From the NCBI GenBank assembly GCA_029882955.1, contig JAOUJX010000001.1, forward strand, positions 1-36,720: a stretch of DNA of 36,720 nt. Reading direction: 5' to 3'. A model generated the notes under the pieces. That model saw only the letters and a program-made list of their open reading frames with translations. It made no database searches and was not told the origin of the DNA. This DNA is from Gammaproteobacteria bacterium (lineage in GTDB: Bacteria; Pseudomonadota; Gammaproteobacteria; GCA-001735895). The translations under genes and the position numbers were made by a program. Positions 2,731-27,745 of the stretch are shown here, one piece after another; the stretch's first letter is position 1; every line of letters begins with the position of its first letter.

Positions 2731-4599
2731 ATGGTTAATCATTACGCTCCATGGAAGTACGCACTTCTAATTCTGGTGATATTGCTCGGCCTGGTTTATG
2801 CCGCACCTAACTTATATGGTGAAGATCCGGCAGTGCAGATATCGCACCGGGTCAATCTTATTGATGAGGCCGAACTCGAGCAAATAAAAAGCCTGCTCGA
2901 AAACGAAAATATCGAGTACCGCTCGGCCGCGCTAGAGACTGGCAATATCCTGATTCGGTTCGAAAATACCGAGCAACAGCTAAAGGCGGCCTCACAAATA
3001 GGCGATATTTTACGCGAATCTGACCGACGCTATGGAGTTGCCCTGAACCTGGCTCCGGCGACCCCGGACTGGCTGGCTGGTTTAAACGCATTACCAATGT
3101 ATCTCGGACTCGATCTTCGCGGTGGTGTGCATTTCCTGATGGAAGTGGATATGGAGTCGGCCATAGATAAAGCCCTGCAACGCTCGGAAAGCGAACTTCG
3201 CAGCTTTATGCGTGGCGAAAAGATACGTTACAAGACTGTGCAAAGCAGTGGTCGTACTATTAAAGTGCGTTTTGCACAGGCTGAAGATCGCGATGCAGCC
3301 CGAGTGATGCTGGAAAATGAGTACCGCGATTTTATCTTCGTCGATAGTAGCGACGACCGCAGCTGGTTCATAGAGATAAGTTTCAGCGAGACTGCGCTGG
3401 AAGAAGAAAAGCGTTCGGCGATCCAGCAAAATATCTCTACTCTAAAAAATCGCGTTGATGAGCTTGGTGTGGCTGAACCAGTAATTCAACGTCAGGGTGA
3501 CAGCCGCGTAGTGGTGCAATTGCCCGGTGTGCAGGATACGATTAAAGCGAAAAGAATTCTTGGCAAGACGGCTACACTCGAGTTTCGGTTAGTCTATGGC
3601 AGCTTCACCGATTGGAGTGCTGCTCAGTCTTCCGGCAAGGCTCCTGTGGGTGCCAGGTTATACAAACAAAGTGACGGTAGCCCAGTTCTGTTAAAGCGAA
3701 GTGTTATCGCTAGTGGTGACGAGGTTGTTGGTGCAGTTTCGGGGTTCGATCAGCAAGATGGCAGACCAAACGTTAGGATTACGATGAATGCCAAGGGCGC
3801 TGATCGCATGAGTGACATCACTCGGGATAATATTGGTAAGCCCATGGCGGTTTTGTTTATCGAGGACAATTATGAATTTCGCGAAGTAGATGGTGAAAAA
3901 AAGGCGATCAGAAAAACAGATTATCGTGTAATCAGCGTTGCAACTATTCAGGATCAGCTGAGTAAACAGTTTAATATCACTGGTCTGGATAGTACGCGAG
4001 AGGCAGCCGATCTGGCCTTATTATTACGTGCTGGTGCACTGCGCGCACCCATGGTAATTGTCGAAGAAAGAACTGTGGGCCCGAGCATGGGTAAAGACAA
4101 TATCAAAAAGGGTTTCAAGTCTGTAGTTATCGGATTTATTGCCGTGTTAATTTTTATGGCAATTTATTACCGGGTATTCGGAATGGTGGCCAATATCGCA
4201 CTGACCCTGAACCTGGTATTACTGATATCGGTGCTTTCGATTTTACAGGCCACCTTAACTCTGCCGGGAATTGCCGGTATTGTGCTCACGGTGGGTATGG
4301 CGGTCGATGCCAACGTATTGATTTTTGAGCGTATCCGTGAGGAACTTCGACTCGGTAATTCGCCCCAGGCGTCTATTTATGCCGGTTATGAAAAGGCGTT
4401 TGGCACAATCCTCGATGCTAATATTACGACATTTATTGCTGCTATTGTATTGTATGGTTTTGGCACTGGTCCGATTAAGGGCTTCGCGGTAACCCTGTCT
4501 ATCGGTATCGTCACCTCTATGGTCACTGCTATTTTTGGTACGCGAGCTATTATCAATTTGATCTATGGCCGTAAGACGGTCAAACAACTGGCGATTTAA
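2731..4599 (+). CDS. secD: protein translocase subunit SecD
   Basis: 622 aa. N-terminal TM, large periplasmic domain with GLDLRGGVHF, and a C-terminal 5-6 TM bundle (AGIAGIVLTVGMAVDANVLIFERIREE). Confidence 0.97.
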   Translation: MVNHYAPWKYALLILVILLGLVYAAPNLYGEDPAVQISHRVNLIDEAELEQIKSLLENENIEYRSAALETGNILIRFENTEQQLKAASQIGDILRESDRRYGVALNLAPATPDWLAGLNALPMYLGLDLRGGVHFLMEVDMESAIDKALQRSESELRSFMRGEKIRYKTVQSSGRTIKVRFAQAEDRDAARVMLENEYRDFIFVDSSDDRSWFIEISFSETALEEEKRSAIQQNISTLKNRVDELGVAEPVIQRQGDSRVVVQLPGVQDTIKAKRILGKTATLEFRLVYGSFTDWSAAQSSGKAPVGARLYKQSDGSPVLLKRSVIASGDEVVGAVSGFDQQDGRPNVRITMNAKGADRMSDITRDNIGKPMAVLFIEDNYEFREVDGEKKAIRKTDYRVISVATIQDQLSKQFNITGLDSTREAADLALLLRAGALRAPMVIVEERTVGPSMGKDNIKKGFKSVVIGFIAVLIFMAIYYRVFGMVANIALTLNLVLLISVLSILQATLTLPGIAGIVLTVGMAVDANVLIFERIREELRLGNSPQASIYAGYEKAFGTILDANITTFIAAIVLYGFGTGPIKGFAVTLSIGIVTSMVTAIFGTRAIINLIYGRKTVKQLAI

Positions 4600-6830: not shown

Positions 6831-7517
6831 ATGTATTTAATACCAAAATTGCTCATTACCGGTCTCGTTCTAGGACTCTTGAATGCCTGTTCTGCGACTC
6901 GAATGGAGATTTTACCTGACCCGCAGTACGCGCCGGTCGATATGAGAACCCAGCAGTTTCAGGCTCCCACTAACGGTTCGATTTTTCAGGCTGGTCGTTC
7001 GGTTCGGTTGTTCGAAGATAACAAAGCCTTTCGTGTTGGTGATCTGTTAAGTATCACACTGTCGGAATCTACCAATGCATCAAAATCGGCGGCAACTAAT
7101 ACCGGCAAGGACGATGAACTCGGTCTGAGTGCTACGGCAATCCTGGGTGTATTGCCGACTTATAAAGGCAATTCATTGCTCGAAAATTCGCTGAGTGGTG
7201 AACGGAGCTTCTCCGGCAGTGGTGATAGCGCGCAGAGTAATAGTCTGAACGGAGAGATATCCGCCATGGTCACCGATATCCTGCCTAACGGTACGCTTGT
7301 GGTTCGAGGTGAAAAGATTATCGGACTCAATCAGGGGTCGGAGTTTATACGGTTATCAGGACTGGTACGTCCTCAGGATGTCAGCGCCGATAATATCGTT
7401 CTGTCCACCAAGCTGGCGAATTCACGCATTTACTACGGTGGTGGTGGTGTGATTGCCGAAGCTAATACCAGGGGCTGGTTAAGCCGCTTCTTCGATAGCC
7501 CTGTATTCCCCTTTTAG
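6831..7517 (+). CDS. flgH: flagellar L-ring lipoprotein FlgH
   Basis: Lipobox LLNAC and motif VGDLLSITLSESTNASKSA. The ATG at 6831 (MYLIPKLL...) is preferred over the TTG at 6807 from the ORF track. Confidence 0.93.
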   Translation: MYLIPKLLITGLVLGLLNACSATRMEILPDPQYAPVDMRTQQFQAPTNGSIFQAGRSVRLFEDNKAFRVGDLLSITLSESTNASKSAATNTGKDDELGLSATAILGVLPTYKGNSLLENSLSGERSFSGSGDSAQSNSLNGEISAMVTDILPNGTLVVRGEKIIGLNQGSEFIRLSGLVRPQDVSADNIVLSTKLANSRIYYGGGGVIAEANTRGWLSRFFDSPVFPF

Positions 7518-7526
7518 GAGATAGTG

Positions 7527-8630
7527 ATGAATTACATAAAGCTAGGTATATTACTGATTTTAATGCTCTTTCAGGGTGGTGCATGGGCAGAGAGAATTAA
7601 GGACATTACCACCATTCAGGGCGTTCGTAGCAACCAGCTAGTGGGTTATGGCCTGGTGGTAGGCCTCGATGGATCGGGTGATCAGACTTCTCAGACTCCT
7701 TTTACCGTGCAAAGCTTGAAGAGCATGTTGCTGCAATATGGAGTTACCCTGCCGCCCGGTGTGAACCCGCAGGTTAAGAATATAGCCGCAGTTACGGTAC
7801 ACGCCGAATTGCCGCCTTTTGCCAAGATCGGCCAGACCATCGATATCACTGTGTCATCACTCGGCAACGCCAAGAGCCTGCGCGGTGGCAGTTTGATCAT
7901 GACGCCGCTCAAAGGTGTTGATGGCAATATCTATGCAATCGCACAGGGTAACCTGGTCGTTGGTGGCCTGGGTGTCGAAGGCGCCGACGGTTCTTCGGTT
8001 ACGATCAATGTACCTAGCGTCGGCCGTATCCCCAATGGCGCCAGTATTGAACGTGAGATCGCCAATCCATTCGCACACGGAAACCATGTCGTTCTCAATT
8101 TACGGCGCCCCGATTTCACCACGGCAAAGCGACTTGCCGATACGATTAACCATATCATCGGTCCCAACAATGCTTTTGCCAAAGACAGCGTGACCGTCTC
8201 GGTGAATGCGCCGAAAGACGTGTCACAGAGAGTTGGCTTCGTGTCTTTTCTGGAGAATCTGGAATTTCAACCGGGCGAGGCCGCAGCAAAGGTCATTGTT
8301 AATTCACGCTCAGGCACCGTGGTGATAGGTAATCACGTCAAGGTGTACTCGGCTGCTGTTTCGCATGGCAATTTAAGCGTCACTATTACTAACATCGTCG
8401 ATGTGGTGCAGCCGGAACCCTTAAGTGGCGGCACTACGGCACAAATTGTACAGTCAGATATCGAAGTGACTGCGGATGATAATCGTATGTTCCGTTTCCC
8501 GCAGGGCGTGACCTTGAGCGAAATTGTCCGCGCGGTCAACCAGGTTGGTGCATCACCAGGCGATTTAGTCGCTATTTTAGAGTCACTAAAGCAAGTTGGC
8601 GCGTTAAGTGCAGAGCTAATTGTTATTTAA
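7527..8630 (+). CDS. flgI: flagellar P-ring protein FlgI
   Basis: Signal peptide ending GGAWA, then [36 protein letters not shown] lies 6 nt upstream of the ATG at 7527; the GTG at 7524 is too close to the RBS. Confidence 0.95.
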
Positions 8631-12976: not shown

Positions 12977-14212
12977 ATGCCTCAATTTATTAATACAAAC
13001 GTAGCATCGCTGAATACACAGCGTGCTTTGAACGGTTCACAAAATGCTTTGCAAACCTCGTTGCAACGTTTGTCTTCCGGCCTGCGTATCAACAGTGCCA
13101 AAGACGACGCGGCGGGTCTCGCGATTTCAGAGCGATTCACCGGTCAGATTCGCGGTTTGAATCAGGCCGTGCGAAATGCCAACGATGGTATTTCACTGGC
13201 ACAGACTGCAGAAGGCGCGCTTGCCAGTGTTGGTGGCTCGCTACAGCGTATTCGTGAGCTGGCTGTCCAGTCAGCCAACGATACTAACTCAGCAGGTGAC
13301 CGCCAGGCCATTAACGACGAAGTTCAGCAACTCATCTCAGAAATCGAGCGGGTTGCTAATACCACTGAATTCAACGGTCAGCGCGTACTCGACGGCAGTT
13401 TGACCGACCTGTTCTTCCAGGTCGGTGCTAACCAGGGTCAGACTATTGCGGTTACCGGAGTCGATTCCCGCACCAGTGTGCTGGGTACTTCAGAGTCTGC
13501 CGCAACAGCAACTGGTCTTAGCCAGACTCAGATTAATGATCCTGCCCAGGGAATCACTGGCTTTACCGCAGAAATGACGATAACCGTAGATGGTGCAGCC
13601 GCTGCGTTTGCGACAACTGAACTCGTCGCTTCGACTACCATGGAAGGCGCAGTGCGTGCGATTAATAACGCTATTGACACAGCAGCTAATGGTGATGCGG
13701 TGATAGCGGATGCCAATTTAAAGGCTTCTTTACGGGTCGATAACGCCGGTTTAACCAGTATTGTGGTCACCGGTAAATACGACTTAAATACGGCTAATCC
13801 GTTATTTGTAACTACTGCGGTGAGTGCGAACGTAGCTGATCCGGCTGGTGGTGCCGACATACCCACTGTAATACACGCAGGCGGTAACTCAACCCAGGAA
13901 GCCTTGACTACTATCGACGTAACTACTCGTTTAGATTCGTTCGAAGCCATTGCTGCGGTTGATGGTGCCTTAAACCAGGTCAACTCACTCCGTGGTGAGC
14001 TTGGTGCGGTTCAGGTTCGTTTCTCGTCTACTATTGCAAATCTGCAGACCACCTCTGAAAACCTGTCAGCATCCCGCTCACGTATCCGTGATGCGGATTT
14101 CGCTCAGGAGACTGCGGAACTGACTCGTAACCAGATCATTCAGCAAGCGGGTATCGCCATGTTGTCTCAGGCGAACTCAGCACCGCAGAACGTATTGTCA
14201 CTACTTCAGTAA
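12977..14212 (+). CDS. fliC: flagellin (copy 1, 411 aa)
   Basis: N-terminus LSSGLRINSAKDDAAGLAISERFTGQIRGLNQA...LQRIRELAVQSAND. C-terminus RIRDADFAQETAELTRNQIIQQAGIAMLSQANSAPQNVLSLLQ. GGGAGA RBS. Confidence 0.97.
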   Translation: MPQFINTNVASLNTQRALNGSQNALQTSLQRLSSGLRINSAKDDAAGLAISERFTGQIRGLNQAVRNANDGISLAQTAEGALASVGGSLQRIRELAVQSANDTNSAGDRQAINDEVQQLISEIERVANTTEFNGQRVLDGSLTDLFFQVGANQGQTIAVTGVDSRTSVLGTSESAATATGLSQTQINDPAQGITGFTAEMTITVDGAAAAFATTELVASTTMEGAVRAINNAIDTAANGDAVIADANLKASLRVDNAGLTSIVVTGKYDLNTANPLFVTTAVSANVADPAGGADIPTVIHAGGNSTQEALTTIDVTTRLDSFEAIAAVDGALNQVNSLRGELGAVQVRFSSTIANLQTTSENLSASRSRIRDADFAQETAELTRNQIIQQAGIAMLSQANSAPQNVLSLLQ

Positions 14213-14232
14213 CAGGCAATTTAAACAGAGAA

Positions 14233-14268
14233 TGACTGGCCTGAGGAACTTCGGGCCAGTCAAATTTT
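14233..14268 (+). terminator. stem-loop between flagellin 1 and flaG 1 (TGACTGGCC-N12-GGCCAGTCA, then AATTTT)
   Basis: 9-bp perfect stem read directly with a short T-run. The position suggests partial termination or attenuation ahead of flaG. Confidence 0.55.
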
Positions 14269-14282
14269 AGCGGAGATTTATT

Positions 14283-14711
14283 ATGGTTAATGAGACAACA
14301 GGAGCAACCGTCGTACGGCTTACGCCTATGGTTAGTATCTCTAGACCAGAATTGAATCAGGAAACAGGCAAATCATCTGCAACGGAAGGGCGGAAATTGC
14401 CAGTAGAAAGCAATGCTAAACCTCAGGTGCTGTCTCATACCGAACAAGTTCAGGAGCCGCAAGAGCTACACAAAGCGGTCAGGGAGATCAACGAATTTGT
14501 TCAGAATGTACAGCGAGACCTATCGTTTAATGTCGATGAGACGAGTGGCCGTACTGTGATAAAAGTAATTGATCGTGATAGCGGCGATACGGTTCGGCAA
14601 ATACCTACGGAAGAAGTGTTAGTAATTGCCAGGCATATACGCAGTGTTAGTGATGAGTCGATGAGCCGAGAAGTGGTTCCTACTGGTTTATTATTTTCTG
14701 AAAATACCTGA
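14283..14711 (+). CDS. flaG: flagellar protein FlaG (copy 1)
   Basis: 142 aa. Conserved FlaG core INEFVQNVQRDLSFNVDETSGRTVIKVIDRDSGDTVRQIPTEE. Confidence 0.9.
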   Translation: MVNETTGATVVRLTPMVSISRPELNQETGKSSATEGRKLPVESNAKPQVLSHTEQVQEPQELHKAVREINEFVQNVQRDLSFNVDETSGRTVIKVIDRDSGDTVRQIPTEEVLVIARHIRSVSDESMSREVVPTGLLFSENT

Positions 14712-15027: not shown

Positions 15028-16263
15028 ATGCCTCAATTTATTAATACAAATATTGCATCGCTGAATACACAGCGTGCTCTTAACGGTTCACAGGATGCTT
15101 TGCAAACCTCATTGCAACGCCTGTCTTCTGGTTTGCGTATCAATAGCGCCAAAGATGATGCTGCCGGTCTCGCAATTTCTGAAAGATTTACCAGTCAGAT
15201 TCGTGGTTTAAACCAGGCTGTGAGAAATTCCAACGATGGTATTTCGTTGTCTCAAACGGCAGAAGGTGCGCTTTCCAGCATCGGCTCAGCGTTGCAGCGC
15301 ATTCGAGAACTATCGGTACAATCGGCTAACGATACTAATTCTTCAGGTGACCGTCAGGCCATCAACGATGAAGTTCAGCAACTTATATCCGAGGTGGAGC
15401 GAGTCGCTAATACGACTGAATTTAACGGCCAGCGTGTTCTCGATGGCAGCCTTACGGATCTGTTTTTCCAGGTCGGAGCTAATCAGGGGCAGACCATAGC
15501 CGTTACCGGTGTCGATTCTCGTTCCAGCGTGCTTGGCACCTCAGAGTCTGCACTGGCGGCTGGTGGCATTTCACAGGATCAGATTAACAATCCGGCAATT
15601 GGTATTGCGTCTTTTAACGACATGACCATTACGGTTGACGGGGCTGTTACGGTAGTTGATACCGCACTTGCAACTGACATGTCGACAGCAACAACAATGG
15701 AAGGTGCGGTTCGCGCCATCAACACTGCAATCGGTGTTGCGTCTCAGACTGATCCAGTGGTCGCAGATGCTAATTTGAAAGCGTCTTTAAGAGTCGATAA
15801 TACGGGTTTAACCAGTATTGTTATTAATGGTAAATACGATTTAAATACGGCTGCTCCATTGTTTACAGCGACAGCTGTTTCAGCCACTCTGGCAGATGTA
15901 GGTGTCACCGTTGTTGCCGTCAGCTCTGGTGTGGCTTCAGCCCAGGTAGACTTGACAACTATCGATGTAACAACTCGCCAGGATGCGTACGAGACCATTG
16001 CTGCGGTTGATGGTGCCTTAAACCAGATCAATTCACTACGGGGCGAACTCGGTGCAATTCAGGCGCGATTCTCATCGACGATTTCCAATCTGCAAACCAC
16101 TTCTGAGAACCTGTCGGCTTCGCGTTCACGAATTCGTGATGCGGATTTCGCGGCAGAAACTGCCGAGCTGACACGTAATCAGATTATTCAGCAGGCTGGT
16201 ATTGCGATGTTGTCTCAGGCGAATTCAGCACCGCAAAATGTGTTGTCATTGCTACAGGGGTAG
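15028..16263 (+). CDS. fliC: flagellin (copy 2, 411 aa)
   Basis: Same conserved N- and C-terminal domains as copy 1. The central region has diverged (for example GISQDQINNPAIGIASFNDMTITVDGAVTVVD versus GLSQTQINDPAQGITGFTAEMTITVDGAAAAF). Confidence 0.97.
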   Translation: MPQFINTNIASLNTQRALNGSQDALQTSLQRLSSGLRINSAKDDAAGLAISERFTSQIRGLNQAVRNSNDGISLSQTAEGALSSIGSALQRIRELSVQSANDTNSSGDRQAINDEVQQLISEVERVANTTEFNGQRVLDGSLTDLFFQVGANQGQTIAVTGVDSRSSVLGTSESALAAGGISQDQINNPAIGIASFNDMTITVDGAVTVVDTALATDMSTATTMEGAVRAINTAIGVASQTDPVVADANLKASLRVDNTGLTSIVINGKYDLNTAAPLFTATAVSATLADVGVTVVAVSSGVASAQVDLTTIDVTTRQDAYETIAAVDGALNQINSLRGELGAIQARFSSTISNLQTTSENLSASRSRIRDADFAAETAELTRNQIIQQAGIAMLSQANSAPQNVLSLLQG

Positions 16264-16280
16264 ACAGCTGACAGGAAAGG

Positions 16281-16313
16281 CTGGTCCGGGTAATTTCCGG
16301 CCCAGTCGATTTT
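16281..16313 (+). terminator. imperfect stem-loop plus T-run after flagellin 2 (CTGGTCCGG-N7-CCGGCCCAG...TTTT)
   Basis: 9-bp stem with one mismatch, positionally equivalent to the copy-1 hairpin. Confidence 0.45.
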
Positions 16314-16330
16314 CCTAAAGAGGATTCATT

Positions 16331-16759
16331 ATGGTCAACGACTTAACTACTACACAGGTTACCCGGCAAACGCCGGATGTCAGTTTTTCGAGGCCAGAAT
16401 TGAAACCGGGAACAACTGAAACCAGCACGGCTAATGGCCGGAATTTGCCAGACGGAGGCAAGACCACGCCCCTGGTTGAGCCGGTCGCGGCGCTGAATGA
16501 AGAGCCGAAAAAATTACTCGAAGCAACCAGGTCGATAAACGAGTTTGTTCAATTCGTACAGAGGGACCTCTCGTTTAACCTCGATGAGGAGAGCGGTCGC
16601 GTCGTGATTAAAGTGATTGCCCGGGATAGTGGCGATACTATCCGCCAAATACCGACAGAAGAGGCCCTCGCGATCGCTCAGTACATTAGTGAGGTACACG
16701 AAAATGCAATGGATAAGAAGATGATTCCGACCGGGTTATTAATTTCGGAAAATGTATAA
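16331..16759 (+). CDS. flaG: flagellar protein FlaG (copy 2)
   Basis: 142 aa. Core INEFVQFVQRDLSFNLDEESGRVVIKVIARDSGDTIRQIPTEE. Confidence 0.9.
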   Translation: MVNDLTTTQVTRQTPDVSFSRPELKPGTTETSTANGRNLPDGGKTTPLVEPVAALNEEPKKLLEATRSINEFVQFVQRDLSFNLDEESGRVVIKVIARDSGDTIRQIPTEEALAIAQYISEVHENAMDKKMIPTGLLISENV

Positions 16760-20998: not shown

Positions 20999-21184
20999 TA
21001 AATATCTCTAATCGAAGGAATGGCGGATGGAGTCGCCGAAGGCTGCGCAGCTTACAGGAAATTGCCCTTTTAATCGAAATAATTTGAACTGAGAATATCG
21101 CGATGAGCGAGCATGAAGCCGAAGTATTTTATGCTGGTTGAGGATAAAATACAGCATTATTTCTGCTATAGAAGGTAAAAGTTG

Positions 21185-22576
21185 ATGCCGGCTGAAAAAT
21201 CATCATTGAGAAACCAGGTGCCGCAAGGAGCCGAGGGCGATGTTAACAGCTCACCCTATCGCCGCGATTGGCAGTCCGGGAGAATCAATGCCGAAGCTCG
21301 CGTTATACTCGATAAAGATTCCCGCTATTTTCTGCGCCAGTCGGTGTCGACACCCTGTTTAAATACGATTAAAAAGGCGGAGGGAATCTGGATAGAAGAT
21401 CATTCTGGCAAGCGTTACATGGATTTTCATGGCAATAACGTACATCATATTGGCTACTCCCACCCTCGATTAATCGAAGCTATTAACCGACAAATGCAGA
21501 CTTTGTCATTCGCACCCAGGCGTTATGCCTGCGATGTTGCTGCGGAACTGGCCGAGAAACTCGCAGATATATCCCCGGGTAGTTTATCGAAACTACTGTT
21601 TACTACAGGAGGTTCGGACGCCATTGAAGTCGCTTTGAAAATGGCCCGGACTGCTACCGGACGATTTAAAACTATTTCATTCTGGGATTCGTTTCATGGT
21701 GCCGGGTTCGGTGCCAGCAGTGTCGGCGGTGAAGAAATGTTTCGTGGCGGATCAATTGGGCCGTTATTACCGGGAACTGAGCATGTGCCGCCGTTTGGCG
21801 ATTATAGAAATGCCTGGGGCGTGCGCGAAGGCAGTGCCGATCTTTGCGCGCGTCAGATTCGATACGTGCTGGAAAAGGAAGGCGATGTTAGTGCGGTCAT
21901 AGCCGAGCCGAGTCGAGCAGTGCCCTACATCGCTGCACCGGGTTTCTGGCAGCAGGTTCGGGAGGCCTGCAACGAGTTTGGTGCATTGTTGATCTTTGAC
22001 GAAATTCCTACCGGTCTCGGCAAGACTGGAAAGCTATTTGCCTGTGATCACGACGAAGTGGTGCCTGATATTCTTGTGATAGGCAAAAGTCTCGGTGGCG
22101 GTATTTTGCCCATCGCCAGTGTGATCTGTAAGCCCGAACTCGATGTTGCCGAACATTACGCCTACGGACATTATACGCACGAGAAAAATCCGGTAACCAC
22201 GCGCGCCGCATTAACCACAATTGAAATTATCGAAGACGAGGGCCTGGTCGAAAATGCTGCTGTCGTGGGTCAGTACGCCCTGCAACGATTAGAGGAAATG
22301 ATGGAGAGCCATCCTCTTATCGGCGATGTTCGTGGCAGGGGTTTTCTATTCGGTGTTGAGCTGGTGACCGACCGCGATAGTCGTGAGCCAGCAAATGATG
22401 CTGCAGATCGAGTGCTTTATCGTGCACTGGATAAAGGCCTGAGTTTTAAAACGACCATGGGCAATGTATTAACATTTACACCATCGTTAATCACCACGCA
22501 AAGTGATATGGCCTTTGCGCTTAATGTAATTGATGAATCTCTGGGCGAAGTTGAAAATGAGCTAGGCTTCAACTGA
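21185..22576 (+). CDS. class-III (aspartate aminotransferase-family) PLP-dependent aminotransferase, substrate unknown
   Basis: TTGGSDAIEVALKMAR, DEIPTGLGKTG and the PLP-lysine context VIGKSLGGG. ATG at 21185. There is no pathway context in the window. Confidence 0.85.
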   Translation: MPAEKSSLRNQVPQGAEGDVNSSPYRRDWQSGRINAEARVILDKDSRYFLRQSVSTPCLNTIKKAEGIWIEDHSGKRYMDFHGNNVHHIGYSHPRLIEAINRQMQTLSFAPRRYACDVAAELAEKLADISPGSLSKLLFTTGGSDAIEVALKMARTATGRFKTISFWDSFHGAGFGASSVGGEEMFRGGSIGPLLPGTEHVPPFGDYRNAWGVREGSADLCARQIRYVLEKEGDVSAVIAEPSRAVPYIAAPGFWQQVREACNEFGALLIFDEIPTGLGKTGKLFACDHDEVVPDILVIGKSLGGGILPIASVICKPELDVAEHYAYGHYTHEKNPVTTRAALTTIEIIEDEGLVENAAVVGQYALQRLEEMMESHPLIGDVRGRGFLFGVELVTDRDSREPANDAADRVLYRALDKGLSFKTTMGNVLTFTPSLITTQSDMAFALNVIDESLGEVENELGFN

Positions 22577-23986
22577 TAACGATTGATTAGGGAAAGTGAT
22601 GACAACTCTCAGGCCTGATCCTTTTTCCGGTGTCTCCATGGAAAGCGTAGCCTGGTGTAACTCAACTACCTGTGTGACTATGGATAAGCCGATGCCGCAA
22701 CCTGTTTCCTGATGGTTTTGTAAACGGTAATATCGCTCCAGTACCCGATCACGTTCTTCTTCTGGAATACCGGGGCCGTTGTCTTCGACGATGAGGCGAA
22801 ATTGCCTTTCATCGTTGATCAAACTCAGGCTAATAGCACCACCATCCGGGGTATAAGAAATGGCATTGCTGAGTAAATTTCGAATCAGCAATCGTAGGGA
22901 GGTCTCATCCACCGGGGCAATGACGTGATCGTTATCTGTGATAGACAGCTCGAGATTCTTGTCCTCCGCGATTGGTGCCAGTAAGGCAGTTTCTTCGACC
23001 AGGATCTTACCAATATCGATTCTCTCCAGCTGCTGGCTGAATTTCTCAGGCTCCAGTCGAGCCAGGGCGAGCAGTTGATTGACTAGATGTGTGCTGCGAT
23101 CGATACCCCGCATGACCTGATCGATAGCGGTGATACGATCACTTGCATTGTCGGCTTTGCGGGCCAGCTCGGCATGTAGCTTGACGGCGGAGAGCGGCGT
23201 CCTCAGTTCGTGTGCGGCATCCGATGTGATTCTCTTTTCTCTAGCCAGTGCATTTTTCAACCGGGATAGTAGCTGATTTACCGCCTCGGTAATGGTCTTG
23301 ATCTCAGCGGGTGTATTTGTACTGGTGATTGAGTCTAGTTTATCCGCACTACGCGATTTAATCTGGGAGGTCAGCTTTTGTAGTGGTGCTAGCCCCTGAT
23401 TGATAGCAAACCACATAACTATGGACAGAACCGGCACCAGGATCAGGAATAGTTGGAGCAGACCTTCAGATACTTCTTCGATTAATTCGTTGCGCACATC
23501 GATGCGTTCAGCGGTGATACAACGATACCTGCCATCAATACTGGTTAAGCTGAAAACTCTCCATTCGTAATCCGAGAAGTAATGATCACTAAACCCGCTT
23601 CGTCCGGCACTAATATCGGTGATCGGAAGGTTGGTCGATTTAAGAACCAGGTTTCCGGCGTCATCCCATATCTGAAATCCCAGCTTTGTTTCGTAGACAT
23701 GACCGTTGGCCAATTCTTCATCGTCATCAATATATTCGTCTAATTCAGGGTCGTGGTCCGATTTTAATTTGTTCTGGTCAAGAAATAATTGAATACTGGA
23801 GAGTTCTAAAGGGTTCCTGCCAACCTGCGCCAGGCTAAGAATCAGACGGGCAGAGCGGGATAATTGCGCATCGAATAACTCCTGGGTTTCATGTTGAATT
23901 GTGGCATAACTCATCCAGGATCCGCTGCCGACCAGTATGAAAGTTACCAGTAATAATCGTATTATGAGGATAGTTCGCATCGACAT
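22562..23986 (-). CDS. sensor histidine kinase, QseC/PmrB (BasS)-type
   Basis: TM1, a periplasmic domain of about 140 aa, TM2, H-box AAHELRTPLSAV, N-box LLSNAISYTP, G1 DNGPGIP and G2 GCGIGLSIV. Starts 5 nt after the response-regulator stop. Confidence 0.92.
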   Translation of the reverse strand: MSMRTILIIRLLLVTFILVGSGSWMSYATIQHETQELFDAQLSRSARLILSLAQVGRNPLELSSIQLFLDQNKLKSDHDPELDEYIDDDEELANGHVYETKLGFQIWDDAGNLVLKSTNLPITDISAGRSGFSDHYFSDYEWRVFSLTSIDGRYRCITAERIDVRNELIEEVSEGLLQLFLILVPVLSIVMWFAINQGLAPLQKLTSQIKSRSADKLDSITSTNTPAEIKTITEAVNQLLSRLKNALAREKRITSDAAHELRTPLSAVKLHAELARKADNASDRITAIDQVMRGIDRSTHLVNQLLALARLEPEKFSQQLERIDIGKILVEETALLAPIAEDKNLELSITDNDHVIAPVDETSLRLLIRNLLSNAISYTPDGGAISLSLINDERQFRLIVEDNGPGIPEEERDRVLERYYRLQNHQETGCGIGLSIVTQVVELHQATLSMETPEKGSGLRVVITFPNQSLSVEA

Positions 23987-23991
23987 ATCCG

Positions 23992-24651
23992 CTATTGCCT
24001 CGGTATGGTGTAACCGACGCCGCGGATTGTTTTGATTAAATCGGCACCAAAATATTTGCGCAGATGATGAATATGTACCTCGATAGCATTGCTTTCAATT
24101 TCGTCACCCCAGTTATAGAGTTTATCTTCGAGCTGGGCGCGTGAGAGGACTCGACCACAACTGGAGAGTAATTCTTCGAGTAGTGCAAATTCTCGACGGG
24201 ATAAGCCGATGACTTTCTCATCACGGGTGACGCTGTGGGCAGCAGGGTCGAGAATGATGTTTTTGTAGATAATGCGCTGTTCGGGCAGGCCACGGGAACG
24301 CCTGATTAAGGCGCGCAAGCGAGCACAAAGCTCGTCCAGTTCGAAAGGCTTGACCAGGTAATCGTCGGCACCAGCATCGAGCCCGGCTACCCTGTCTGAT
24401 AACCCGTCCTGTGCGGTTAATATTAAGACGGGTAAAGTGACCCCCTGGCCACGAATCTGTTTAAGCAGGTCAAGCCCGCTTATTTTTGGCAAGCCGATAT
24501 CCAGAATCATACAGTCGTATTCGGTTTCTCTGATTGCAGACAAAGCCGTTTCGCCATTTTTTACCCAGTCGACACTATAATTTTCGTGACCTAGACCGGC
24601 AAATAGCCCCTCACCGAGCAACGAGTCATCTTCTACCAGTAATAGCCGCAC
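23992..24651 (-). CDS. OmpR/PhoB-family response regulator, PmrA/QseB-like
   Basis: Receiver domain (VRLLLVEDD, DCMILDIGLP, LILTAQD, KPF) plus a winged-helix domain (LSRREFALLEEL...IRGVGYTI). The GTG at 24651 gives the canonical (M)RLLLVEDD N-terminus. The ORF-track GTG at 24681 is 16 nt from a putative operator and has no RBS. Confidence 0.9.
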   Translation of the reverse strand: MRLLLVEDDSLLGEGLFAGLGHENYSVDWVKNGETALSAIRETEYDCMILDIGLPKISGLDLLKQIRGQGVTLPVLILTAQDGLSDRVAGLDAGADDYLVKPFELDELCARLRALIRRSRGLPEQRIIYKNIILDPAAHSVTRDEKVIGLSRREFALLEELLSSCGRVLSRAQLEDKLYNWGDEIESNAIEVHIHHLRKYFGADLIKTIRGVGYTIPRQ

Positions 24652-24696
24652 AGAATCGATTCCATATAATATTGGGTACACATTTACCGTTTTAAT

Positions 24697-24713
24697 CTTA
24701 AGCCTTTATTAAG
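24697..24713 (-). promoter_or_regulatory. PmrA-type box facing the response-regulator/kinase operon (minus strand reads CTTAAT-AAAGG-CTTAAG)
   Basis: Perfect match to the enterobacterial PmrA/BasR consensus YTTAAK-N5-YTTAAK when read on the minus strand. Lies 46 nt upstream of the preferred regulator start. Suggests autoregulation. Confidence 0.55.
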
Positions 24714-24747
24714 GAGTTGCCCATTTTTTTGAGTTACTGGTTTCACA

Positions 24748-24764
24748 CTTAAGATTGGTTTAAG
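24748..24764 (+). promoter_or_regulatory. PmrA-type box facing the thioredoxin-DUF4266-DUF3570-apbE operon (CTTAAG-ATTGG-TTTAAG)
   Basis: Perfect YTTAAK-N5-YTTAAK on the plus strand. A TAAAAT -10-like hexamer at 24781-24786 sits 16 nt downstream, so the box occupies the -35 position as in PmrA-activated promoters. Confidence 0.55.
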
Positions 24765-24804
24765 AAAGGAAAGCTAGGATTAAAATAACTCGAAAGGAGA
24801 ACCA

Positions 24805-25287
24805 ATGAAATTAATAACGTCTATAGCCAGCCTCATGATGCTGGTATCAGTTAGTTTGAATGTAAGCGCTGCGACCGAAGCACCCAATATTAAATTACCC
24901 GGGCTGAATGGGGAAGTGAACCTGGAAAAGCTTAGAGGCAAGGTCGTTTATCTTGATTTCTGGGCTTCGTGGTGTAAGCCCTGCGCTAAGTCTTTCCCAT
25001 GGATGGAAGAAATGAACAGCGCTTATCGGGCTCAGGGGCTGGAAATAGTCGCGGTAAATCTCGACAAGGATCGCAAGGTGGCTGATGCCTTCCTGAAGAA
25101 ACTCGAAGTAAATTTTAAAATTGCTTACGATGCAGGAGGCGATACGGCAAGCCAGTATAAATTACGCGGTATGCCGAGCAGCTTTCTGATCGGAAGAGAC
25201 GGTAAGTTATATGCCACTCATATTGGTTTTCGCGATAAGGATAAGCCAAAAATTGAACAGGCAATCAAACAGTTACTCAAGCTTTAG
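24805..25287 (+). CDS. periplasmic TlpA/ResA-like thioredoxin-fold thiol:disulfide oxidoreductase
   Basis: Sec signal peptide (…SLNVSA/ATE), redoxin fold with active site FWASWCKPC and a GMPSSFLIGRDGK cis-Pro loop region. Confidence 0.9.
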   Translation: MKLITSIASLMMLVSVSLNVSAATEAPNIKLPGLNGEVNLEKLRGKVVYLDFWASWCKPCAKSFPWMEEMNSAYRAQGLEIVAVNLDKDRKVADAFLKKLEVNFKIAYDAGGDTASQYKLRGMPSSFLIGRDGKLYATHIGFRDKDKPKIEQAIKQLLKL

Positions 25288-25299
25288 TCAGGTTGGTTT

Positions 25300-25512
25300 A
25301 TGCGAACTTTTATTGTAATTTTCATGATGATATTTCTTTCGGCCTGCTCATCTCTGGGTGTACAACCCTGGGATCGAGACTTGCTGGCGAAAGATTCGAT
25401 GCAGCTGGTGCCCGATTATCTGGATAACTTCTTCGACGAGCATATCTACTTTAGCAAGGAGGCCAGCAGCGGTGGTCAGGGTGTTGGCGGCGGAGGTTGC
25501 GGATGCAATTAA
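25300..25512 (+). CDS. DUF4266-type small lipoprotein (70 aa) with C-terminal GGGGCGCN
   Basis: Lipobox FLSAC (Cys16, Ser at +2). Mature sequence QPWDRDLLAKDSM...EHIYFSKEASSGGQGVGGGGCGCN matches my memory of the DUF4266 family, including the terminal Gly-rich CGC motif. Confidence 0.8.
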   Translation: MRTFIVIFMMIFLSACSSLGVQPWDRDLLAKDSMQLVPDYLDNFFDEHIYFSKEASSGGQGVGGGGCGCN

Positions 25513-26807
25513 AAAATATTCGAAAGCAGATGAGTCTGGCGACCTGTGCCCTGTTACAGGCAGCTTCACCAGCTGTGAATGCCGAGGAAAGTGACTGGGA
25601 GATTGACACAGCCATATTATTTTATAGCGAAGACAATGGGCGTGTCAGTGCCATAGAACCGGCGATTTATGCCGGTCGAGAACTGGCCGACGACCAACGT
25701 ATCGATCTCAGACTAGTCGTCGATGCGCTCACGGGTGCCACGCCGAATGGAGCACACCCATCGGCTGTCTCACAAACCTTTACCACACCCTCGGGCGGGA
25801 GCACTTATACCGAAGCACCGGGTGAGTTGCCCCTGGATGATACCTTTAGAGATAGCCGGGTAGCTATCGGTGCCGATTGGGAAGTCGGCCTTGATCGTTT
25901 TTCCAGAGTTACCTGGGGCGGTAACCTGTCGAAGGAATATGACTATCTGTCGCTGGGTGGTAGTGCGACTTACGCGCGAGATTTTAATGACAGGAATACA
26001 ACCTTTACCACAGCATTTGCCTTCAATAACGATACGATTGAACCGGAAGGCGGTATTCCGTCGGTGTTTCAACCGATGAGGGTTGCGGGTTCCGGCCTCA
26101 ATCGTGAAGGTGCGGATGATGACAAAACGATTACCGATTTCATGCTTGGTGTTACTCAGGTTATTAGCCGCGAAACTATTATGCAGTTGAATTTTAGCTT
26201 CGGTCAGATCGATGGTTATCAAAATGATCCGTTTAAGATTGTGACTGTGGTCGATCCAGCTGACGGTTTACCAGCAGGGTCGGGTTTTTTCGATACGGCA
26301 AGCACCGGAAACCTGCCTTATGTTTACGAGCGCCGCCCGGATACACGTGACCGTAGCGTCATTTATTTCAAAACGGTACATCATTTCGAAGAGGATACGA
26401 TCAACTTTTCCTATCGTTATTACAACGACGACTGGGAAGTAACATCGCATACCCTGGATTTACGTTATCGTTACGAACTTGGAAATAGCTATTTACAGCC
26501 CCATGTTCGATTTTACCGGCAGGACGCTGCCGAATTCTATACGCATGATTTGACCCTGGGTACAGATGTCGATCCTGTTTCGGGTGCAGTATCAAGAGAC
26601 TATGCCACTAGCGACTATCGCCTCGCGGAATCAGAGACATTGACGCTCGGCTTAAAATACGGGATGCCTCTAGGCAATGACAGTGAATTATCAATTCGTG
26701 GCGAAGTGATCACTCAGTCCGTGAACGATGGCTCGGTGCGTCCGGGCGAGGAGACGGCTGATCTGGATGCTTTTGTGTTGCAGTTAAACTATTCGCTGCT
26801 CTGGTAG
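25503..26807 (+). CDS. DUF3570-type putative outer-membrane beta-barrel protein with ApbE flavinylation motif
   Basis: The ATG at 25503 has GGAGG 6 nt upstream and overlaps the DUF4266 stop by 10 nt. Signal peptide ...AASPAVNA/EE. Alternating beta-strand pattern and a C-terminal aromatic signal LQLNYSLLW. DALTGAT at residues 76-82 of the ORF-track translation. Confidence 0.82.
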   Translation: MQLKNIRKQMSLATCALLQAASPAVNAEESDWEIDTAILFYSEDNGRVSAIEPAIYAGRELADDQRIDLRLVVDALTGATPNGAHPSAVSQTFTTPSGGSTYTEAPGELPLDDTFRDSRVAIGADWEVGLDRFSRVTWGGNLSKEYDYLSLGGSATYARDFNDRNTTFTTAFAFNNDTIEPEGGIPSVFQPMRVAGSGLNREGADDDKTITDFMLGVTQVISRETIMQLNFSFGQIDGYQNDPFKIVTVVDPADGLPAGSGFFDTASTGNLPYVYERRPDTRDRSVIYFKTVHHFEEDTINFSYRYYNDDWEVTSHTLDLRYRYELGNSYLQPHVRFYRQDAAEFYTHDLTLGTDVDPVSGAVSRDYATSDYRLAESETLTLGLKYGMPLGNDSELSIRGEVITQSVNDGSVRPGEETADLDAFVLQLNYSLLW

Positions 26808-26863
26808 TGAAAAATGTGACTATCCAATAGAATATTCGGGCGTCTACTGCGGCGCCCTTTTTT

Positions 26864-27745
26864 ATGAACGATATTAGATTAAAGCGGGATCCAGATTGTT
26901 GGCGGGGTAGTTTTATAGCCATGGCCAGCCCCTGTGAAGTGTTAATGGAGGTTGACGAAGAAGAGCTGGCGGGTCGAGTACTCGAAACTGTCGTCGATGA
27001 AGCCAGGCGAATCGAAGCTAAATTTAGTCGTTACCGTGATGACAATATCATCGCCAGAATTAATTCGGCGCAAGGCGATTCGGTTACTGTTGATGAGGAA
27101 TCCGCGCGACTACTCGATTTTGCCGACCAGCTTTACCAGATGAGTGACGGTCTGTTTGATATAACTTCAGGTGTATTACGCAAGGTTTGGCGCTTCGATG
27201 GGAGCGATCGAATACCCGGGCCTCGGGCCATCCAGCAAGTTCTGAAAAATGTCGGTTGGCATAAAGTGACCTGGCGGAATAGTCAGATAATATTAGACCA
27301 GGGTATGGAAATCGATCTCGGTGGTTTGGGAAAGGAGTACGCGGTCGATCGATGCATAACGCTGGCGCGTGAATTAACCGATAAAAGTGTCTTAATCAAT
27401 TTTGGAGGTGACCTTGCGGTCAGCTGTCAACGTCAGGGCGGTAAATGCTGGTCGGTCGGTCGATTGGTAACAGGGAGCGACCAGGCTGTTGCTTTGTTCC
27501 AGCTTTTTACAGGTGCAATCGCCACTAGCGGCGACGCTAATCGGTACCTGTTAAAGGACGGCGTCCGCTATAGTCATGTTTTAAATCCCAAATCTGGCTG
27601 GCCGGTTGTGGATGCACCACATACTGTCAGCGTCGCGGCTGCTACCTGCACGGAAGCCGGCATGTTTTCGACATTGGCGATGTTACAGGGCCCTCAGGCG
27701 AGGGAGTTTCTCAGTCTACAGGGTGTGGAGTACTGGGTTAACTAA
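26864..27745 (+). CDS. apbE: ApbE-family FAD:protein FMN transferase (no N-terminal signal peptide)
   Basis: Motifs FDITSG, GGLGKEYAVD, NFGGDLAV, AIATSGDANRY and HVLNPKSGWP are characteristic of ApbE/Ftp. An in-frame TAG at 26828-26830 prevents any N-terminal extension. Confidence 0.9.
   Translation: MNDIRLKRDPDCWRGSFIAMASPCEVLMEVDEEELAGRVLETVVDEARRIEAKFSRYRDDNIIARINSAQGDSVTVDEESARLLDFADQLYQMSDGLFDITSGVLRKVWRFDGSDRIPGPRAIQQVLKNVGWHKVTWRNSQIILDQGMEIDLGGLGKEYAVDRCITLARELTDKSVLINFGGDLAVSCQRQGGKCWSVGRLVTGSDQAVALFQLFTGAIATSGDANRYLLKDGVRYSHVLNPKSGWPVVDAPHTVSVAAATCTEAGMFSTLAMLQGPQAREFLSLQGVEYWVN

Follow-up and report, generated by a model that had tools for sequence, protein, structure and literature searches.

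Conserved predicted PmrA-type operators between a two-component system and a DUF3570 flavinylation operon

We analyzed a 36,720-nt stretch of gammaproteobacterial DNA, referred to here as the window, in which two operons diverge from a short intergenic region. The plus-strand operon is a single co-directional cluster of four genes (24805-27745), all of which score above the Pfam gathering thresholds. Its first gene (24805-25287) encodes a secreted TlpA/ResA-like thioredoxin (Pfam Redoxin/AhpC-TSA/Thioredoxin_8) with a signal-like N terminus and a CKPC motif, the CxxC lying at residue 57. This gene is followed by those for a DUF4266 lipoprotein (25300-25512; PF14086) with a C-terminal CGC at residue 67, for a DUF3570 protein (25497-26807; PF12094, 365.6 bits), and finally for an ApbE FAD:protein FMN transferase (26864-27745; PF02424, 210.4 bits). 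Of the two [S/T]GA[S/T] flavinylation motifs characteristic of DUF3570 in such clusters (PMC8238504), the window protein contains one in exact form, TGAT at residues 79 to 82, and a strict pattern search found no second one. The apbE gene begins 56 nt after the DUF3570 gene. Since the N terminus of its product (MNDIRLKRDPDCWRGSF...) has no obvious signal peptide or lipobox, this enzyme may be cytoplasmic, though its presumed substrate is exported. DUF3570 is a proven substrate of flavinylation by ApbE, in a study that left its function open (Meheust et al. 2021, eLife, PMC8238504). The window operon has exactly the gene set of the DsbD-associated ApbE/DUF3570/thioredoxin-like/DUF4266 clusters described there. 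None of the window genes encodes a DsbD_TM protein, and 316 clusters without DsbD have been reported (PMC8238504).

The minus-strand operon encodes a two-component system. It consists of a PmrA/QseB-like OmpR/PhoB-type response regulator of 219 aa (23992-24651, minus strand; Pfam Response_reg and Trans_reg_C) and a QseC/PmrB-like sensor histidine kinase of 474 aa with a periplasmic 2CSK_N domain (22562-23986, minus strand; Pfam 2CSK_N, HisKA, and HATPase_c). The longest open reading frame of the regulator starts at 24681. Since the orthologue alignments all begin with MRLLLVEDD, corresponding to a GTG codon at 24651, we place the start there, and the intergenic region thus measures 153 nt. The range of 123 to 153 nt given in the first-pass annotation reflects the choice of this start, and only its upper end is favored by the orthologues. 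Converging on the kinase gene is a gene (21182-22576) whose product scores above the NCBIfam cutoff for the (R)-1-hydroxy-2-aminoethylphosphonate ammonia-lyase PbfA (663.5 versus 525); the position of this PbfA-like gene is kept in one related locus (L001).

Within the intergenic region lie two sequences of the type bound by PmrA. Box 2 (24748-24764, plus strand; CTTAAGATTGGTTTAAG, that is, CTTAAG-ATTGG-TTTAAG) contains two TTAAG half-sites 11 bp apart and is the predicted operator of the thioredoxin-DUF4266-DUF3570-apbE promoter. Box 1 (24713-24697, minus strand; CTTAATAAAGGCTTAAG, that is, CTTAAT-AAAGG-CTTAAG) is the predicted operator adjoining the regulator gene, and its plus-strand reading is CTTAAG-CCTTT-ATTAAG. 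The first-pass annotation had pointed out both 17-mers as perfect matches to the PmrA/BasR consensus YTTAAK-N5-YTTAAK; its coordinates and strands are right, and every specified consensus position is matched. No other exact match to this consensus occurred on either strand of the window, so that both matches fall inside this single divergent intergenic region. Dinucleotide-preserving shuffles gave a mean of 0.12 matches, and two matches were reached in 1 of 100 shuffles. Allowing one mismatch added only the reverse readings of the two boxes, box 1 being exact on the minus strand and carrying one mismatch on the plus strand (ATTAAG). When the window was scanned with a 33-nt weight matrix comprising the box, a 10-nt gap, and a -10 hexamer, and trained on other loci only, box 2 was the top site with 30.5 bits, compared to 7.6 bits for the best site outside the intergenic region.

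To place these boxes in a comparative context, we used a sample of 80 DUF3570 loci from species-representative genomes, obtained via alignment of DUF3570 homologues and coming nearly all from uncultured Gammaproteobacteria. The divergent arrangement of regulator/kinase pair and thioredoxin operon seen in the window was found in 26 loci. In 6 further loci of the Moraxellaceae type, including that of the cultured Agitococcus lubricus DSM 5822 (L072), the pair follows apbE on the same strand. The proposal of the first-pass annotation had been made to depend on the presence of boxes in orthologous intergenic regions, and TTAA-N7-TTAA was indeed found in 26 of 27 divergent regions (window included), usually twice, within intergenic sequence that is otherwise poorly conserved. 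Over all loci, upstream regions totalling 17.8 kb contained 108 strand-specific matches to TTAAG-N6-TTAA, compared to 8 in the other ∼704 kb. Among the loci with a usable upstream region, 31 of the 32 that carry the regulator have a box ahead of the thioredoxin-like gene, compared to 16 of the 37 regulator-less loci left after removal of truncated contigs (Fisher P of about 1e-6). In the 16 loci that have a box and no regulator in the fetched stretch, the regulator gene may be located outside that stretch, or the box may serve a different paralogue.

The link between box and regulator survives gene rearrangement, since the Moraxellaceae-type loci, with the pair located after apbE, still carry boxes before the thioredoxin gene. 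In two loci of this arrangement, with the regulator/kinase pair at the operon end, a full-length dsbD encoding DsbD_N, DsbD_TM, and thioredoxin domains diverges from the thioredoxin operon (L068, 2276-4156; L072, 2211-4070; both minus strand), and the space between dsbD and the thioredoxin gene holds two boxes. A box of the same type faces the divergent dsbD in these loci, whereas the window genes come without dsbD. The dsbD-side box of A. lubricus is followed by TACAGT at a 10-nt gap.

The position of box 2 relative to a putative -10 element is equally conserved. In 42 loci, counting from the exact box nearest the thioredoxin gene and without conditioning on the downstream bases, T was found at +11 in 34, A at +12 in 35, and T at +16 in 35 loci, that is, a TAnnnT hexamer at a fixed gap of 10 nt downstream of the box. 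A MAFFT alignment of 9 intergenic regions gave the same picture. Its invariant columns were the four TTAA(G) cores, the T, A, and T of the -10 hexamer (T124, A125, and T129), and one regulator-side A, with no others; the cores were TTAAG throughout in box 2, which is itself kept in the 42 loci, and TTAA in box 1. Since TAnnnT is conserved at exactly this gap, the -10 element of the window is predicted to be TAGGAT (24775-24780, plus strand), 10 nt after box 2. If this hexamer occupies -12 to -7, transcription would start near 24787, and box 2 would span about -39 to -23, the geometry of class II promoters in which the activator site replaces the -35 element. A sigma-70 pattern scan reported no TTGACA-type promoter at box 2 on the plus strand. 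Downstream, the sequence AAGGAG (24794-24799, plus strand) reads as a Shine-Dalgarno element 5 nt before the ATG of the thioredoxin-like gene (24805). The -35-replacing position that the first-pass annotation had assigned to this box is therefore borne out by about 34 to 35 of the 42 loci.

The regulator itself fits such an operator. The best NCBIfam models for the two proteins are PmrA/QseB and QseC/PmrB, respectively, although all scores stay below the equivalog cutoffs (for the regulator, PmrA, 242.5 bits, cutoff 330, and QseB, 242.6 bits, cutoff 345; for the kinase, QseC, 277.6, cutoff 475, and PmrB, 207.2, cutoff 314). The regulator shares 42% identity with Klebsiella pneumoniae PmrA over 216 residues without gaps, and its closest solved structures are those of PmrA/BasR (4S04/4S05 and 8JO2). 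In PmrA, DNA is contacted by K153, R171, T187, N188, V192, H193, H195, R198, and R210 of helix and wing (PMC3973317, PMC10570014), with T187, N188, V192, and H195 contacting the TAA bases in structure 4S05 (PMC10570014). All of these positions are identical in the window regulator except for the conservative replacements K153R and T187S; the phosphate contacts R171, R198, and R210 are thus retained, with R in place of K153. Across 33 orthologues, the contact positions are essentially invariant, H193 being replaced by Y in 12, and a by-eye comparison revealed no covariation of residue 193 (H/Y) with the box sequence. By score or by regulon, the system is not an orthologue of PmrA or QseB; a Pfam scan of the window ORFs of at least 100 aa found no lipid A/LPS modification genes (arn/pbgP, eptA/pmrC, or ugd), and the only operons next to the boxes are those of the regulator and of the redox proteins.

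The regulator side of the intergenic region is less clear-cut. In 14 loci, box 1 and the start codon of the regulator are separated by 42 to 48 nt (window, 45 nt), and the distance of box 1 to box 2 varies from 33 to 61 nt with no helical phasing. The fixed distance to the regulator start, combined with the variable distance to box 2, points to two independent promoters. A candidate -10 hexamer for the regulator/kinase operon, TAAATG (24686-24681, minus strand), follows box 1 at 10 nt. Of the corresponding hexamers in 19 loci, 17 have A as the second base, 10 start with T, and only 8 end with T; the position 2 A is the invariant regulator-side column of the alignment (T34 on the plus strand). 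Transcription starting about 7 nt after TAAATG would leave a leader of about 22 nt with a conserved GGA ribosome-binding motif. The conserved distance between box 1 and the regulator start and the A at position 2 make positive autoregulation through box 1, which had also been suggested by the first-pass annotation, plausible and in our estimate rather probable, though the weak position 6 T leaves it less secure than activation of the redox operon. A simple sigma-70 pattern scan also reported TTAAAA-18 nt-TATTAT (24695-24666, minus strand), adjoining box 1 downstream. We consider it an improbable main promoter of the regulator, given that transcription from it would begin within or beyond the ribosome-binding site and that more distant orthologues lack it.

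Because CTTAAG is its own reverse complement, box 1 can be read in either orientation. When 18 box 1 sites were scored against a leave-one-out box 2 matrix, the plus orientation was favored in 8 and the minus orientation in 10; box 1 of the window scored 14.2 bits on the plus and 16.6 bits on the minus strand. The cues conflict, with the flanking Y/K positions leaning toward the minus (divergent) orientation and the spacer leaning toward plus. The opposite orientation of the two boxes given in the first-pass annotation is therefore one of two possible readings. In seven loci (L001, L006, L032 to L034, L039, and L042), box 1 fits the strict consensus on both strands.

Since conserved predicted sites lie between the regulator gene and the operon, the latter is very probably switched on by the neighboring sensor system. 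We propose that the 153-nt region holds two divergent promoters, both of which would depend on the two-component system encoded next to it. In this system, the QseC/PmrB-like kinase would sense a periplasmic signal and phosphorylate the PmrA/QseB-like regulator, and we infer that a dimer of the regulator would bind box 2 where the -35 element would otherwise be. The bound dimer would activate rather than repress, recruiting sigma-70 RNA polymerase as in PhoB/PmrA class II promoters, and all four genes of the redox operon, from the thioredoxin-like gene to apbE, would be transcribed from a start near 24787. Box 1, with its weaker hexamer TAAATG and at the same distance from the regulator gene, would most likely serve positive autoregulation of the regulator/kinase operon. 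The central element of this model, direct activation of the flavinylation operon by the adjacent regulator through box 2, had been put forward in the first-pass annotation. It now appears well supported by comparison, since the boxes are conserved in orthologues, co-occur with the regulator, and are matched by retained PmrA contact residues, and we assign it a probability of roughly 0.75.

To see how general the operator is, we used a second, regulator-centered sample of 80 metagenome loci (L081 to L160), in which the matches listed are paralogues of 41 to 60% identity. Among these matches, the DUF3570 operon was found in 1 of 80 loci (L118), again with a box in front, and YTTAAG-N5-YTTAAG occurred at 16 sites in about 30 kb of flanks of the PmrA/QseB-like two-component loci, compared to 6 in 427 kb. 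This enrichment beside many other PmrA/QseB-like systems indicates that the TTAAG-N6-TTAAG operator is a property of the whole clade. Specific to the present case is the conserved attachment of the predicted operator to the DUF3570 operon. The sites of the second sample are placed directly upstream of the regulator or directly behind the kinase (for example, L085, 3915-3940; L150, 3841-3866; and L092, 5957), and in some loci (L085 and L150) three half-sites stand in register.

Several other explanations were weighed against this model. The boxes could simply be chance products of AT-rich intergenic DNA, or a cluster of the AflII-type palindrome CTTAAG, with no regulatory role. The intergenic DNA is AT-rich indeed, and TTAA is a common tetramer (216 copies in the window). 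However, only 0.12 matches to the full consensus would be expected in the window; it contains only 5 CTTAAG hexamers, 2 of them in the boxes; a search of 24300-25100 against Rfam returned no match to a known RNA element; and dozens of loci keep the cores and the -10 spacing although the remainder of their intergenic sequence cannot be aligned. A chance origin is effectively refuted by the comparative data. Another question is which hexamer serves as the -10 element of the redox operon, for which the first-pass annotation had proposed TAAAAT, 16 nt after box 2. This hexamer is present (24781-24786), is closer to TATAAT than TAGGAT is, and is also found in the closest relative (L004). Yet it is common to that relative only, and across the 42 loci only the hexamer at the 10-nt gap is kept. 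Moreover, transcription beginning about 7 nt beyond TAAAAT would start at the Shine-Dalgarno element, and the 16-nt gap would move the box to about -45 to -29, outside the range quoted for PmrA and PhoB (PMC10570014). We therefore consider TAAAAT an improbable -10 element and retain TAGGAT.

Two further alternatives leave the activating role of box 2 or the function of the boxes intact and concern what box 1 does and which protein binds. Box 1 could be an auxiliary upstream site of the redox operon activated through box 2, or it could limit or repress transcription of the regulator. In many loci its spacer resembles the box 2 spacer on the same (plus) strand, the regulator-side hexamer is weak at position 6, the sigma-70-like TTAAAA-18-TATTAT lies just downstream, and four loci (L013, L015, L016, and L079) have a single box. 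These observations have to be set against the fixed spacing of box 1 to the regulator start and its unphased spacing to box 2, the position 2 A kept in 17 of 19 loci, the A. lubricus counterpart, which faces dsbD with TACAGT at the 10-nt gap, and the points already raised against TATTAT, namely, its start in or after the ribosome-binding site and its absence from more distant orthologues. An auxiliary or repressive box 1 thus seems possible, if doubtful. As to who binds the boxes, the main rival to the adjacent regulator is a PmrA/QseB-family paralogue encoded elsewhere, for which the boxes would be real operators while the neighboring regulator controls other genes. Such cross-regulation is conceivable because the operator type is common near other PmrA/QseB-like systems, unrelated loci included (the 16 versus 6 sites among the matches listed), and 16 DUF3570 loci have a box without an adjacent regulator. 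On the other hand, the box tracks the regulator closely (31 of 32 loci) and in two gene orders, 33 orthologues show almost no variation in the recognition helix, and divergent operons that are each preceded by a site are typical of control by a local cognate regulator. Use of the sites by a paralogue instead is, in our view, quite unlikely.

Compared to known systems, the direct control by the adjacent regulator that we favor would be of a familiar kind. The PmrA/BasR box of Salmonella, E. coli, and Klebsiella (pbgP, ugd, and pmrCAB) has the same two XTTAAY/YTTAAK hexamers with a 5-nt spacer and the same overlap with, or replacement of, the -35 element at a sigma-70 promoter, and the presumed binder is likewise a dimer of the OmpR/PhoB family. 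Such a -35 overlap or replacement was found at box 2, whereas box 1 shows only a weaker -10-like hexamer. As at pmrCAB, a predicted operator also precedes the regulator's own operon, suggesting autoregulation (PMC10570014, PMC3973317). The differences from PmrA lie in the half-sites, which in boxes of the window type are usually both palindromic TTAAG; in the regulator, which at 42% identity and below the equivalog cutoff nevertheless keeps N188, V192, and H195; and in the target, a periplasmic thiol/flavin redox operon rather than lipopolysaccharide modification genes. The PmrA box overlaps the -35 element, and the PhoB site on pstS spans -41 to -25, with the pmra-box on pbgP lying four bp further downstream than that site (PMC10570014). 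Judged from its 10-nt gap to the -10 element, box 2 would be positioned about 2 bp further upstream than the box on pbgP, at a place intermediate between the sites on pbgP and pstS. The pho box at pstS is a direct repeat of the same 11-bp period about 10 nt upstream of the -10 element. PhoB activates by contact with sigma region 4 and phoBR is autoregulated, a further likeness; its half-site, CTGTCAT as opposed to TTAAG here, its recognition-helix residues, and its signal are different. The predicted regulatory mechanism is thus textbook OmpR/PhoB class II activation and not mechanistically surprising.

With respect to the logic of the circuit, the E. coli HprSR (YedVW)-msrPQ system is comparable, in that an OmpR-family two-component system encoded nearby induces a periplasmic redox-repair module supplied by a membrane electron carrier. 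The analogy is one of logic only, the HprSR regulator belonging to a CusR-like clade and both its operator and the enzymes being different from those of the window system; a box before a cytochrome b561 gene, as in L071, adds to the resemblance. In that locus, a box with its -10 element (TTAAGAGCCCTTTAAG-N10-TAGAGT; 7274-7305) precedes a cytochrome b561 family gene (7336-7914) located directly after apbE, which makes this gene a possible further member of the regulon.

As for the signal, the periplasmic domain of the kinase has conserved ELFDAQL, GHxYE, WR, and AERxDVR motifs in 30 orthologues. At about residues 75 to 100, an acidic loop (DHDPELDEYIDDDEELANGH; ELDE...DDDEE), variable in both sequence and length, lies next to the invariant GHxYE, a candidate site for a ligand or metal. 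Iron sensing of the PmrB type is only a lead, since the ExxE-type acidic stretch (ELDE, DDDEE) falls in the variable loop. We discarded thiol sensing, as no CxxC is conserved among the orthologues and some of them lack the single Cys. A metal or an oxidant is a reasonable guess, with no particular one supported by the data. Taking these observations together, the box might define a conserved regulon of an inducible envelope electron-transfer pathway, whose trigger, e.g., a metal or oxidant, would be read by the GHxYE/acidic-loop periplasmic domain. This regulon would comprise the thioredoxin-DUF4266-DUF3570-apbE genes plus dsbD and cytochrome b561 in other lineages. We regard this broader reading as speculative and, taken as a whole, rather unlikely.

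What the window offers is an ordinary kind of switch on a poorly understood target, and a handle on the uncharacterized DUF3570 flavinylation system. Our literature searches found no paper linking a two-component system to DUF3570/DUF4266, and Meheust et al. (2021), who describe the gene content and the flavinylation of DUF3570, make no mention of a two-component regulator or operator (PMC8238504). A dedicated sensor/regulator pair with a defined operator provides an experimental switch for finding the condition that induces the DUF3570 operon, with A. lubricus DSM 5822 as a cultured organism for testing. The box motif can also be used in genome scans for the remainder of the regulon, dsbD and cytochrome b561 being already present in related loci.

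Individual loci of the DUF3570 sample showed additional variation. In three of them (L013 and L016, both at about 4214-4245, and L079, about 4131-4165), a single box lies between the divergent operons, with a TAnnnT hexamer at a gap of exactly 10 nt on either side. This arrangement suggests that the two divergent promoters there may share one operator; with palindromic CTTAAG half-sites, a single operator could fire in both directions. In L003 (1615-1788), the regulator/kinase pair is missing and a PbfA-like aminotransferase gene abuts the thioredoxin operon, with two boxes and the -10 element still kept upstream of the thioredoxin gene. The intergenic region of L010 (3903-4302) is enlarged to 400 nt by an insert between the regulator gene and box 1; this insert has long inverted-repeat-like segments and may represent a small mobile element.

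The rest of the window is ordinary chromosome, with queA/tgt, yajC-secDF, flagellar genes, rhlE, the PbfA-like lyase gene, and genes for a GGDEF protein, an MFS transporter, and an oligopeptide ABC transporter. Within its flagellar cluster (flgG-flgL/fliD/fliS), we observed a tandem duplication (12977-14711 and 15028-16759), in which each copy pairs a flagellin gene (411 aa) with a downstream flaG (142 aa).
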